Below, in pieces: positions 586 through 10,780 of a stretch of 24,777 nucleotides of DNA. The notes beneath the pieces are model-generated. The model did not search any database, was not told the DNA's origin, and saw only the letters and a program-made list of their open reading frames with translations. The translations under genes and the position numbers were made by a program. How positions within the stretch are numbered: position 1 is the first letter of the stretch; each line of letters begins with the position of its first letter. Origin of the DNA: a virus (taxonomy: Duplodnaviria; Caudoviricetes); the IMG/VR virus record IMGVR_UViG_3300020044_003764, positions 1-24,777 of that record. One strand, given 5' to 3'.

Positions 586-776
586 ATCAACTCCAATGCT
601 CGGGCAGGCTTGATAAATTCAGCAACATGAAGCAAATCTTCAACTTCGGCATTTCTCCAAGTTGGCAATGATGTTGTATATCCCATGCCACTTACTTCAT
701 AAAGACGAACCTGAAGTACAAGCACATGTTTGCCATTTTCTGCTGGAATGGCTTTAAATCTAATTTCATCAATCAT
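582..776 (-). CDS. Hypothetical phage protein (start revised to ATG 776, MIDEIRF...)
   Basis: AGGA SD upstream of ATG 776; ATGA overlap with the gene remnant at 773-859. Confidence 0.7.
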   Translation of the reverse strand: MIDEIRFKAIPAENGKHVLVLQVRLYEVSGMGYTTSLPTWRNAEVEDLLHVAEFIKPARALELI

Positions 777-859
777 GTTTGTCCTATCTTGTTGAGTGTC
801 CACTCAAGCAGTTCTTGCTGAGTGATGTCATAGTAGTCAACAAAACCTTTGCTGCCAAC
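773..859 (-). pseudogene. Orphaned 3' end of a Ref-like nuclease gene
   Basis: Translates to VGSKGFVDYYDITQQELLEWTLNKIGQT*, which aligns ungapped with the C-terminus of 1446..1724 (MGTKAFERHYNITQKELLQWVLERVQ*). Confidence 0.8.
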
Positions 860-871
860 TAGGAAAAACCC

Positions 872-1351
872 TTATGCAATTCTTGAAAACTGACCATGCA
901 ATTTTTTAGACGCATCGCAATAAGATTCATACGCCTTGATTTTGCAATCAAATAACCCTAAGTAGATTTTTTTGTTGTTGACGGTAATGTTTGCTATCCA
1001 TTTTTTTGCGGCCTTGCTCCAACTAACGCCCTTAAAACCGCTTTTGTTAGTTATTGGCATTTTTGTGTTTCTCATATTTTCATTACGAGAAGCGGGTCTT
1101 AAATTTTCAATTTTGTTGTTACATGGATTGCCATCTTTGTGGTCAATTTCATCCGGCAAAAAACCAAAGTGCCAAAGCCAAATTATTCGATGCAACTTGT
1201 ATCGTTTGTAATTTATTGAAACAGCATAACTGTTACCTGCTTTCCCTCCGGCAATTAAGCCTTGCTGAGATCGACTTTGAATTGATTTTTTTCTAATCAA
1301 TTTTCCATCATCGTATTCAAACAATTCTTTTACAAGTTGTTGCGTAATCAT
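872..1351 (-). CDS. HNH homing endonuclease with C-terminal AP2-like DNA-binding domain
   Basis: HRIIW...IDHKDGNPCNNKIENLR HNH motif; NKSGFKGVSW...KWIANI...YLGLF AP2-like tail; GAGG SD before ATG 1351; AT-rich. Confidence 0.92.
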   Translation of the reverse strand: MITQQLVKELFEYDDGKLIRKKSIQSRSQQGLIAGGKAGNSYAVSINYKRYKLHRIIWLWHFGFLPDEIDHKDGNPCNNKIENLRPASRNENMRNTKMPITNKSGFKGVSWSKAAKKWIANITVNNKKIYLGLFDCKIKAYESYCDASKKLHGQFSRIA

Positions 1352-1375
1352 GTCGCACCTCATCATTGGTGGAAG

Positions 1376-1442
1376 TCATCACTGAAAGACAACAGCAGGA
1401 CGGTGATGAATCGTCTTTTCCCCCGCTAAAGGTAGCTGTTGC
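1376..1442 (-). ncRNA. Putative cis-regulatory three-way-junction leader RNA, copy A
   Basis: GCAACAGC-UA-CCUU(UAGC)GGGG-GAAAA-GACG(AUUCAUCAC)CGUC-CU-GCUGUUGU. The loop UCAUCAC is complementary to downstream GUGAUGA (1382-1376). Same architecture as copy B. Confidence 0.65.
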
Positions 1443-1445
1443 AAA

Positions 1446-1724
1446 TTATTGTACACGCTCCAAAACCCATTGCAACAATTCTTTTTGAGTGATGTTGTAA
1501 TGACGTTCAAACGCTTTTGTCCCCATGCCATGTATGCCAGTGTTACCACGGTGATGCTCTACACATAAGCCCATCAGCGTCATGTAGTCGCCTTTGCCCC
1601 AACCGCCAGCACGGAGGTGGTGTAGCTCTACTGGACCGGGATCGTGATTGCCATGCAAGTGATGGCACAGCGCACAGCCAAGGCTTGCTACAGCCTCTTT
1701 ATGCTTCTTCTCGGCGTTCTTCAA
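1446..1724 (-). CDS. Ref-like/DUF968-like Zn-binding HNH-fold nuclease
   Basis: LGCALC...VELHH...LCVEHHRG...GIHG pattern; nin-region context. Confidence 0.75.
   Translation of the reverse strand: MKNAEKKHKEAVASLGCALCHHLHGNHDPGPVELHHLRAGGWGKGDYMTLMGLCVEHHRGNTGIHGMGTKAFERHYNITQKELLQWVLERVQ
1448..1475 (-). promoter_or_regulatory. Sigma70-like promoter for the HNH leader, inside the last codons of the Ref-like gene
   Basis: TTGCAA-16 nt-TACAAT, ending 5 nt before the RNA element. Confidence 0.55.
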
Positions 1725-4590: not shown

Positions 4591-4608
4591 GATATTTCCA
4601 TTCACTGT

Positions 4609-4686
4609 CCTTCACTGAAGAAACGCACGGCAGGCGGGAAGGCTCGCTTTTCGACACGCTCATGACTTCGTATCTAGCCGGGTTTC
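4609..4686 (-). ncRNA. Putative cis-regulatory three-way-junction leader RNA, copy B
   Basis: CGGC-UA-GAUACG(AAGUCAUGAG)CGUGUC-GAAAA-GCG(AGCCUUCC)CGC-CU-GCCG. The loop CCUUC is complementary to downstream GAAGG (4613-4609). Confidence 0.65.
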
Positions 4687-4691
4687 ATAAA

Positions 4692-4700
4692 ACTATACCA
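4692..4700 (-). promoter_or_regulatory. Extended -10 promoter (TGGTATAGT) for the initiator leader
   Basis: TGn-TATAGT ends 5 nt before the RNA element; TTTACA lies 18 nt upstream of the -10. Confidence 0.55.
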
Positions 4701-4704
4701 CCAC

Positions 4705-9205: not shown

Positions 9206-10301
9206 GGGTTACTACATGGTCAAAAGTTTTTGGGAATTCGCCTGTTGTCATGTAGTGTAGATTGCGCTCAATGCGGCTGTCTTGCGGGGCTAATTCTAAA
9301 GCCTTTTGGCAAAGTTGGACAGATTCATCCCTTAATCCAAGGTTCCATGCAGCAATGCTGGCGTAGTCGTATGGTTTCTCAGTCCAGACAGACGGGTCCA
9401 TTGTGTACACAGCTTGTTTGTCAGTAATCTGCAAGGCAGACTTGGCGGCTGAGTAACTTTCCGCCCACATACTCAGGCGATAGCACTGTGCCGACAACTC
9501 AACCCAAGGCTCACGGGTTCCGGGTGCTTCAGCAACAGCCAGCCTGAACCACTTCAAAGCGTCTGTGGCGTTGCCTTTTTCGGAATACGCCTTACCCAAT
9601 AGCCTCATGGCGTAAGCCCGTTCATTGGGCCAATTTGCTTCTGGCATCTCAAGGTACTTTTTGAGATACACAATGGCTTCATCCCACCGAGCGTAGAACG
9701 TCAACTCACGGGCATGATAGAAAGCGTTTCTTGGGCATCGTGGGTCTTCTTTGACCGCAAGTTCCAGCAAAGGCATATATTGTCCACGGGACTTTGTGTT
9801 GTCTGGCAAGTGTCTAACCAGCAGCATATCTGTCTGGGCATATACCTCCTGAATTCTTCCATCAGGCCTTGGATATTCATGCACTGCGTGATGGAATCTG
9901 TATCCATGACGAGAAAAAATCTTCTCATAGAAGAAGCTGATGCCCTGTCCCCAATCAAACTTGTATCGCAGACGAGTAGTGTTCTCTGTCCACACCCGTT
10001 CAATTTCTTTACGCCAACCGGGTTCAAGCACTTCGTCCAAGTCAAGACTGATAACAATATCAATGTCTCTTGGAAGCAATGCAATCGCCGCATTACGAGC
10101 AAGATCAAAACGCCAAGGGCTAATGCAAATGTCATGGACTTTTGCGCCGCACTCCAAAGCTATTTTTACAGTGTCATCCGTTGACCCTGTGTCAGCAATG
10201 CAAATCAAGTCTGCATCTTTGGCTGAGTCACAGAACCTTTGGACAAATGCGGCTTCATTTTTTGAGATTGCAGAGACTGCAATTTTTAATTTTCTTGTCA
10301 T
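9180..10301 (-). CDS. GT2-family glycosyltransferase with C-terminal TPR repeats
   Basis: ISKNE...ADTGSTDDT...FDLARN...SLDLDE (DxD)...VHE; helical TPR-like C-terminal half. Confidence 0.9.
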   Translation of the reverse strand: MTRKLKIAVSAISKNEAAFVQRFCDSAKDADLICIADTGSTDDTVKIALECGAKVHDICISPWRFDLARNAAIALLPRDIDIVISLDLDEVLEPGWRKEIERVWTENTTRLRYKFDWGQGISFFYEKIFSRHGYRFHHAVHEYPRPDGRIQEVYAQTDMLLVRHLPDNTKSRGQYMPLLELAVKEDPRCPRNAFYHARELTFYARWDEAIVYLKKYLEMPEANWPNERAYAMRLLGKAYSEKGNATDALKWFRLAVAEAPGTREPWVELSAQCYRLSMWAESYSAAKSALQITDKQAVYTMDPSVWTEKPYDYASIAAWNLGLRDESVQLCQKALELAPQDSRIERNLHYMTTGEFPKTFDHVVTHEYSPTHN

Positions 10302-10780
10302 GTTCTATTCCATTCTTTGAAATAATGTTGCTCGGCATTTTTTCTTGCTAAAACAGCATCTTCAATGCTACCAAATCTGCCAAGTGAAATTGATTTTCCT
10401 TCAACACGAATTGTGGCTTTCCATCTGTTGGTGTATTTTTCAAAAGAAACACCTTTGACGCCAGATGTATTTGCTTTTGACAATCCAAGATTTTTACCAT
10501 TCTGAGAATTTGTAGCCTCTCTTAAATTGGAAATCCTGTTGTCAGTTCTTACGCCATTGATGTGGTCAACTTGGTCTTTAGGCCAATCTCCATGATGCAG
10601 TGCCCAAGCAACTCTATGGGCTTGCCATCGCTTTGGGCCTATTGAGATTCCAAGATAGCCACTATGCAACAACGTGCCAGCGGCTTTCTTTTTTATCTTG
10701 CCCTTACCTTTGGCAATCCAATAGATCAATCCAGTTTCAGGATTGTACCGCAGCAGTGATTTCAAAGCATCTATATTCAT
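10298..10780 (-). CDS. HNH homing endonuclease with AP2-like domain
   Basis: YNPETG...AHRVAW...VDHINGVRTDNRISNLR...NTSGVKGV...LGRF. Confidence 0.92.
   Translation of the reverse strand: MNIDALKSLLRYNPETGLIYWIAKGKGKIKKKAAGTLLHSGYLGISIGPKRWQAHRVAWALHHGDWPKDQVDHINGVRTDNRISNLREATNSQNGKNLGLSKANTSGVKGVSFEKYTNRWKATIRVEGKSISLGRFGSIEDAVLARKNAEQHYFKEWNRT

Follow-up and report, generated by a model that had tools for sequence, protein, structure and literature searches.

The closest precedent for the locus described here comes from fungal mitochondria, where mobile ORFs (mORFs) form hybrids with resident genes. The accessible sections of the mORF literature describe such hybrids in atp6 of Allomyces macrogynus and in atp6, atp9, cox2, and nad3 of Glomus sp. 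(PMC3630166), in rps3 of Ophiostoma and in atp6 and cox2 of Phlebia (PMC4019555), and as mobile-ORF gene hybrids of fungal mitochondria (PMC7487136); cleavage has been demonstrated for the Allomyces element, as cited in those sections (PMC3630166, PMC4019555, PMC7487136). The principle of gene-end replacement is already published for fungal mitochondria. In these hybrids, as in the cassette analyzed here, a foreign C terminus is joined in frame, an endonuclease ORF follows, and a native gene end that is nearly identical to that of element-free relatives comes last; splicing is needed in neither. The mORF hybrids, however, reside in the mitochondrion and carry LAGLIDADG or GIY-YIG endonucleases, whereas the cassette resides in a phage and encodes an HNH-AP2 endonuclease. 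Only the cassette has a predicted promoter in its new tail and a structured leader, and its old end, unlike theirs, holds a conserved hairpin and the ribosome site of the next gene. The cassette works like an mORF, but we do not file it in the mORF family.

The initial annotation had instead likened the locus to intronless homing by free-standing phage endonucleases, and this likeness is partial. According to the accessible portion of PMC2988022, the seg and mob nucleases of phage T4 are intergenic, cut hundreds to thousands of bases away, and have given one-sided homing events with microhomology junctions; in the same portion, mobE in nrdA of Aeh1 and mobA in the topoisomerase of T4 split the host protein into two chains. 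Like the T4 seg and mob nucleases, the cassette involves no intron or intein and has an RNA structure (predicted in our case) over the ribosome site. It lies, however, inside codon 61 of the empty gene rather than between genes, and it re-completes one chain, leaving the old end over, where in-gene nucleases of the T4 type split the protein. The T4 nucleases also show co-conversion of flanks, whereas the cassette shows a gradient that linkage decay also predicts. With the T4 cut sites lying so far away, the fungal mitochondrial mORF hybrid, and not T4-type intronless homing, is the closest precedent.

Individual parts of the locus have further counterparts. Phage homing genes of the HNH-AP2 (IPA-HNH) type have an N-terminal HNH and a C-terminal AP2-like domain, an arrangement that the HNH protein of the cassette resembles with an AP2 match just under the cutoff, and the accessible portion of PMC10448857 describes no gene-end replacement for them. 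The int-alpA RNA (Rfam RF02996) is, like our leader, a three-way junction directly before a gene; the leader of the window heads a nuclease cassette. Int-alpA is absent from the main text of PMC5737381, and the accessible portion of PMC2864571 adds nothing on it. The host gene is predicted to adopt the nuclease-domain fold of P1 Ref, a RecA-dependent nuclease (accessible portion of PMC3973344), but at 92 amino acids it lacks the 76-residue disordered N terminus of P1 Ref. We found no phage precedent for the gene-end-replacement layout in the open-access literature, subscription papers being outside the scope of the search.

If the homing reading developed below is correct, the locus would add gene-end replacement to the two other lifestyles of homing nucleases within phage genes, in which the nuclease is spliced out or divides the host protein, and would thus be the third of its kind. 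Such replacement would yield hybrid proteins that spread in a population, as well as small orphan tails that annotation misses. The system is also tractable, as the cassette is shorter than 700 nt, natural empty and occupied alleles co-occur in samples, and the likely target comprises about 15 codons.

Anatomy of the locus

The window (the whole stretch of DNA analyzed, 24,777 nt from the virus record of an uncultured phage) contains, on its minus strand, a 668-nt insert that splits a Ref-like gene at codon 61. ORF and family searches place a NinB gene (2022-1699) before the Ref-like gene, which is a hybrid ORF (1724-1446) ending in MGTKAFERHYNITQKELLQWVLERVQ and a stop codon, and which scores 31.2 bits against PF16786 (RecA_dep_nuc; cutoff, 26.9). 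The 5′ part, codons 1 to 60 (1546-1724), is of host type by its PF16786 match and by the variants it has in common with empty alleles, that is, alleles lacking the cassette. The insert begins with the 3′ end, codons 61 to 92 plus the stop codon (1446-1545), which is a foreign replacement as judged from its mismatches to empty alleles, its pN/pS, and its GC content (0.40, versus 0.56 in the 5′ part). The 94 noncoding nucleotides between the Ref stop and the HNH start (1352-1445) are occupied by the leader RNA, which consists of an int-alpA motif followed by a predicted hairpin. An intact gene for an HNH-AP2 endonuclease of 159 amino acids (872-1351) follows, with an ATG start behind GAGG. Own stop codons flank the HNH gene on both sides, and by the ORF map and Rfam it does not lie in an intron or intein.

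Behind the HNH gene, a 3′ junction (859-875), recognized by its match to empty alleles and by a damaged 6-nt stretch, leads into the stranded original 3′ end of the Ref-like gene (773-858), which also matches empty alleles. This tail had initially been placed at 859-773, where it reads VGSKGFVDYYDITQQELLEWTLNKIGQT and a stop codon. The tail itself is real, but its start lies elsewhere: similarity to empty alleles begins at 875, overlapping the HNH stop. The two Ref tails are paralogous, as had been claimed, with 45% identity over 29 amino acids (P = 0.003, the floor for 300 shuffles). The stranded tail overlaps the next gene (MIDEIRF; 776-582) by ATGA (776-773) and, as proposed, supplies its Shine-Dalgarno sequence, AGGA at 785-782. 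The supposed ATGA coupling holds for the overlap and is positional only, as the stranded tail contains no in-frame ATG, GTG, or TTG at which its translation could begin. The next gene matches no Pfam, PHROG, or NCBIfam family.

The product of the HNH gene contains an HNH_3 domain (53.7 bits against a cutoff of 24.8; E = 1.6e-14), the D, H, and N residues of the HNH motif are invariant in nine aligned sequences, and the protein matches PHROG 99 (E = 1e-59). The C-terminal AP2 match (E = 2e-7) falls just below its cutoff (31.6 versus 33.3 bits), and the match to I-HmuI (1u3e) is weak (E = 0.03). Between alleles, 27 to 35% of synonymous sites differ and pN/pS is 0.06 to 0.18, so by its substitution pattern the HNH gene is under purifying selection.

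The hybrid Ref-like gene likewise appears functional, to judge from its sequence and its predicted structure. Its replacement end has a pN/pS of 0.07 to 0.31 among three occupied alleles, and the model of the hybrid protein (pLDDT of 92) matches P1 Ref (3plw) over residues 1 to 92 with a Z score of 11.1 and an RMSD of 2.2 over 86 aligned residues, the next match having a Z score of 5.4. Residue by residue, the alignment with P1 Ref is good over residues 3 to 59, short of the His65 that would be compared with P1 His153. The Ref-like host gene is probably accessory.

Empty and occupied alleles

A scan of viral contigs confirmed 109 relatives, the best 80 of which were kept as related loci. Within these best 80 of 109, 74 loci have at least 700 nt of downstream sequence; the cassette is absent from 78 and present in 2 (L001 and L002); and the gene ends in a tail of the stranded type (GSKGF), as predicted for HNH-less relatives, in 43, of which 36 show the ATGA ending. 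The exact tail peptide of the window occurs in 4 of the best 80. A gene like the next gene of the window stands behind an intact tail in four empty loci (L025, L038, L039, and L042). In L025 the intact tail overlaps, by ATGA, a MIEEIRF gene that is 83% identical to the next gene of the window, which is the arrangement that the initial annotation had foreseen for an HNH-less relative. None of the 78 empty loci (best 80 of 109) carries both tails or the upstream tail, the arrangements that would have spoken against a replaced gene end.

Empty alleles match the window at 2015-1543 and then at 875-773, and the alignment resumes at the identical subject base, which places the insertion point at codon 61. 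The stranded 84 nt (856-773) are nearly identical to their closest empty alleles, with a single base difference in the window and in L001 and two in L002; for the replacement end, even the best of 63 distinct empty alleles leaves 26 to 29 of 75 nt mismatched. On this comparison the downstream tail is native and the upstream tail is foreign, in line with the claim that an HNH cassette replaced the 3′ end of the Ref-like gene and stranded the old one. That the HNH gene is flanked by two paralogous tails could also be explained if the upstream end were original and the downstream tail had come with the HNH gene or by tandem duplication. We consider this next to impossible, because the downstream tail is within 1 to 2 nt of intact ends in empty relatives that have the same 5′ part and next gene, and because none of the 63 distinct empty alleles comes closer to the upstream end than 26 mismatches in 75 nt. 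Support is good both for the anatomy and for the order of events.

The three distinct occupied alleles (window, L001, and L002) have both junctions in common, and their flanks and next genes differ. Further scans returned one occupied locus from metagenomes (L088, with the allele of L002), two close and two distant loci in a search with the HNH gene, and three loci, with flanks left out, in a genome scan. In public sequencing runs, contigs span the 5′ junction in X1, X4, and X10 and the HNH-to-tail boundary in the same three runs; X1 may be related to the source of the window. Occupied and empty forms were found together in runs X5 and X10. DNA scans for the upstream tail returned only the two occupied contigs, and a donor locus, with a replacement-type end and an HNH gene but without the stranded tail, was not found in these scans.

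At the protein level, a search with residues 53 to 92 of the hybrid gave 58 matches, 16 of them at 90% identity or more. Together with the three loci, these matches yield 18 distinct proteins with the replacement end (mean identity of the end, 96%), 15 of which come without genomic context, so that a downstream HNH gene is assumed for those 15. Over their first 60 residues, the 18 tail carriers vary among themselves as much as 32 empty alleles do (84.5% versus 84.9% identity). The comparison shows how the locus is built, that empty alleles exist, that the gene is a hybrid, and that the occupied form stands on many host backgrounds. The residues MGL at codons 51 to 53 occur in 14 of the 18 replacement-end proteins versus 7 of the 32 empty alleles (P = 0.0002), and the differences between occupied and empty alleles fade upstream of the 5′ junction.

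Junctions, splicing, and spread

The 5′ break falls at codon 60/61 (H-H-R-G|N). The insertion had been placed near the GIHG codons, which is close; the exact break lies about three codons before them. At the 3′ junction, 10 nt (874-865) reproduce the N-K-G-F codons found in empty alleles and partly coincide with the HNH stop codon, an in-register match with a chance probability of about 6e-6. Six different nucleotides (864-859) then replace the 7 nt spanning the His65-Gly66 codons, and identity resumes after them. With this 1-nt loss, the stranded tail (871-773) now lies in the HNH frame, right behind its TAA stop. All 16 nt at 874-859 are invariant across the three occupied alleles. The upstream copy of the target codons differs from the empty allele at 10 of 12 codons, so both copies of the N-K-G-F-H-G-L-G stretch are altered in the occupied allele, and the downstream copy lacks the His-Gly codons. 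The loss of these codons at the junction is a new point. In the empty alleles, H57, H58, G60, G63, H65, and G68 are invariant in 63 of 63 distinct sequences.

Splicing is unlikely on this sequence. That the insert is a self-splicing intron joining the 5′ part to the downstream tail would account for a downstream tail that is undecayed and free of stops, and one join on paper obeys the U and terminal-G rule, from after 1530 into 868. This single rule-fitting join, however, reads H-F-F-L-V-G instead of H-G-L-G, and a reading across the 3′ junction in the original frame meets a TAG stop and lacks the invariant His65. No group I or group II intron matched the insert in Rfam at E ≤ 5, and the only noncoding sequence is the 94 nt of the int-alpA leader. 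The hybrid gene is complete, under selection, and foldable in the model, so splicing is not needed. We regard an intron as highly improbable.

Two histories fit the junction sequence. Mutation may have struck the target in the stranded copy, or a similar palindrome may have closed the donor and been joined via interrupted microhomology; the second would match the one-sided homing events of T4 in the accessible portion of PMC2988022. Among other ref classes, 8 of 29 distinct contexts have a junction-like palindrome where ref ends, whereas none of the 34 of the window's class does. In those other classes, the palindrome has the form AGGG-N4-YCCT (L010, L030, L040, L041, L044, L050, L068, and L080) and resembles 874-859. 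It is possibly a protein-binding site; a reading of AGGG-N4-CCCT as an operator was dropped, since 7 distinct sites against 3 to 6 in shuffles is not an overall enrichment.

The insert is a cassette made up of a foreign gene end, a predicted promoter, an int-alpA leader, and an HNH-AP2 gene, and we consider it probable that it spreads by intron-free homing. The nuclease would have originated behind the ref gene of another lineage and been copied in by one-sided repair, with a homologous left join at the conserved H-H-R-G codons and an illegitimate right join at the interrupted 10-nt microhomology. The cassette now has host-type sequence on either side. When both alleles meet in a mixed infection, the HNH protein would nick or cut the empty one within or close to its N-K-G-F-H-G-L-G codons, and the cassette would be copied over during repair. 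The occupied allele, having both target copies altered, would be immune. The old end would be retained as the right-hand homology arm and for the elements it bears, namely the hairpin and the ribosome site and start codon used by the next gene, and the leader would limit nuclease synthesis. We infer the position of the cut site solely from where both copies differ.

The flanks of the occupied alleles bear on this homing reading. In the 5′ part, 40 of the 41 sites that vary among occupied alleles have only variants known in the 33 empty alleles of the class, and the same is true of 6 of 7 variable sites in the stranded tail, the nearest of which lies 11 nt beyond the damaged bases. Over its initial 30 nt, the noncoding tail shows 0 to 2 base differences, far below the neutral expectation (rough binomial P of 0.006 or less). 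Set against the 27 to 35% synonymous divergence of the HNH gene, these 0 to 2 bases suggest that the stranded tail has been renewed from empty alleles. Ordinary recombination could explain part of the pattern, and shared flank variants with a fading gradient are also expected from an allele of single origin.

One could therefore suppose that there is no homing at this site, and that a single illegitimate recombination introduced a foreign ref end together with the adjacent HNH gene, a block that has since changed backgrounds through ordinary recombination, drift, or selection, with the HNH protein aiming at another site or serving the phage. These phages are highly mosaic, linkage decay by itself yields the upstream gradient, and 22 of the 26 nuclease clusters behind the leader have no significant duplicated gene end. 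The occupied allele is also a minority (2 of 80, best 80 of 109), and a cassette this rare has not swept. Against this account, both junctions fall within the most conserved codons, both target copies are altered, empty-type variants start 11 nt past the damaged stretch, and the HNH gene is kept under purifying selection; we think it unlikely, though it is the alternative to homing that deserves to be taken seriously.

A regulatory element, in addition to the ribosome site, is likely to reside in the old end. In 33 empty alleles, synonymous differences drop to 8% in codons 78 to 92, versus 27 to 54% elsewhere, and a hairpin at 801-824 has a predicted folding energy of −11 kcal/mol in the old tail versus −1.3 in the replacement. 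That the old tail has this conserved hairpin in addition to the ribosome site is a new point. As a constraint, it could by itself conserve the second half of the tail, which weakens the renewal argument there. Among the three occupied alleles, the stranded tails differ at no more than five synonymous codons and at 0 or 1 amino acid. This largely synonymous pattern, together with a stop-free frame directly behind the HNH stop, would also be expected if the tail were a working peptide made by read-through or reinitiation. The tail has no start codon, however, the HNH stop is TAA, a shared frame arises by chance in one case out of three, and renewal from coding empty alleles together with the hairpin constraint explains the synonymous pattern, so we hold a working peptide to be very improbable.

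The leader and its other nucleases

The promoter proposed for the HNH leader, TTGCAA-16-TACAAT, is present in the replacement tail (1475-1448) as a predicted sigma70-type promoter with a 9 of 12 match, its −35 hexamer at 1475-1470 and its −10 hexamer at 1453-1448, overlapping the stop codon. Taken alone, the pattern is no more frequent than chance would make it, with 2 sites where 2.5 are expected. Its −10 part holds up across loci: in 34 of 38 dereplicated contexts a −10 hexamer ends 8 to 14 nt before the leader core, and control windows average 1.4. The −35 part fares less well, at 9 of 34 versus a control mean of 4.6 and maximum of 7.

The leader RNA anticipated for the HNH gene proved to be the catalogued int-alpA RNA (RF02996), at 1442-1376 with 39.3 bits (gathering score, 35.8); the copy in L001 falls below the RF02996 gathering threshold. 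The ribosome site GAGG (1361-1358) and the HNH start codon lie in a predicted hairpin, and neither the leader region nor the tail region gave significant folding z-scores. The second leader loop and a downstream complement, a pairing outside the Rfam model, covary in three loop variants, which suggests a switch. On paper, the loop pairs with a nearby downstream stretch in the window (1352-1445), L001 (419-497), L059 (558-642), and L126 (47-132), and in the same four leaders a second partial copy of the loop complement adjoins the ribosome site.

Scanning with the leader core returned 112 loci, 80 with long flanks. The leader precedes replication-initiator-like genes in 52 of the 112 and nuclease-like genes in the other 60; the gene behind one leader variant is DUF1376. 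Elsewhere in the window (4606-4704, minus strand), the sequence differs where sister phages have an int-alpA-type leader before a replication-initiator-like gene, and it has no Rfam match.

Duplicated gene ends were tested at the protein level, since local alignment of DNA is insensitive (P = 0.49 for the Ref case). At P ≤ 0.01, they were found in 4 of 26 nuclease clusters with flanks versus 0 of 13 replication-gene controls; 6 clusters lacked flanks. The Ref case is duplicated at the 3′ end and the other three at the 5′ end, and L128, which is not a cluster representative, is a further significant 5′ case. That int-alpA leaders accompany other nucleases with duplicated gene ends is a new point. 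It is tempting, though we hold this extension only tentatively, to see a family of intron-free cassettes in which a portable module, a −10 box in a gene end plus an int-alpA leader from a replication operon, lets unrelated HNH genes settle in either gene end and provide it in recoded form, 3′ or 5′, while the displaced end stays on in the double role of homology arm and regulatory element; on this view the Ref case is a member that is actively homing, with its cut site readable from the destroyed His-Gly codons.

Several neighboring arrangements were also seen. Three different HNH genes (L138, L140, and L128) sit at one spot of a RusA-like gene, a label that comes from reading the sequence, just after P-V-G-K-G (leader core at 1501 after orienting the loci). 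There, the first 12 to 17 codons stand upstream and a second start lies behind the HNH gene, a mirror image of the Ref case. In L146, a duplicated 5′ end surrounds a leader-HNH cassette in a small gene upstream of the RusA-like gene (P = 0.005). L119/L142 and L160 have seven-codon duplicated 3′ ends, and there the HNH frame itself closes with the downstream copy; at P = 0.045 and P = 0.15, respectively, these short duplications are suggestive only.

Near ref itself, L023/L043 carry the leader before an unrelated nuclease-like ORF (1905-2526; no Pfam match) between ninB and ref, and their ninB allele is diverged (74%, versus 84 to 85% in L024 and L025). In L014/L016, an HNH-AP2 gene (about 1390-1956) interrupts the ninB start and leaves a 14-codon stub upstream; replacement of the ninB 5′ end was considered and set aside, the duplication test being nonsignificant (P = 0.28). 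The window also holds a second HNH-AP2 gene (10298-10780, minus strand), for which the test for a duplicated gene end was not significant (P = 0.33) and int-alpA gave no match. It is 31% identical to the first and adjoins genes that, from reading the sequence, are tail-assembly-like and glycosyltransferase-like.
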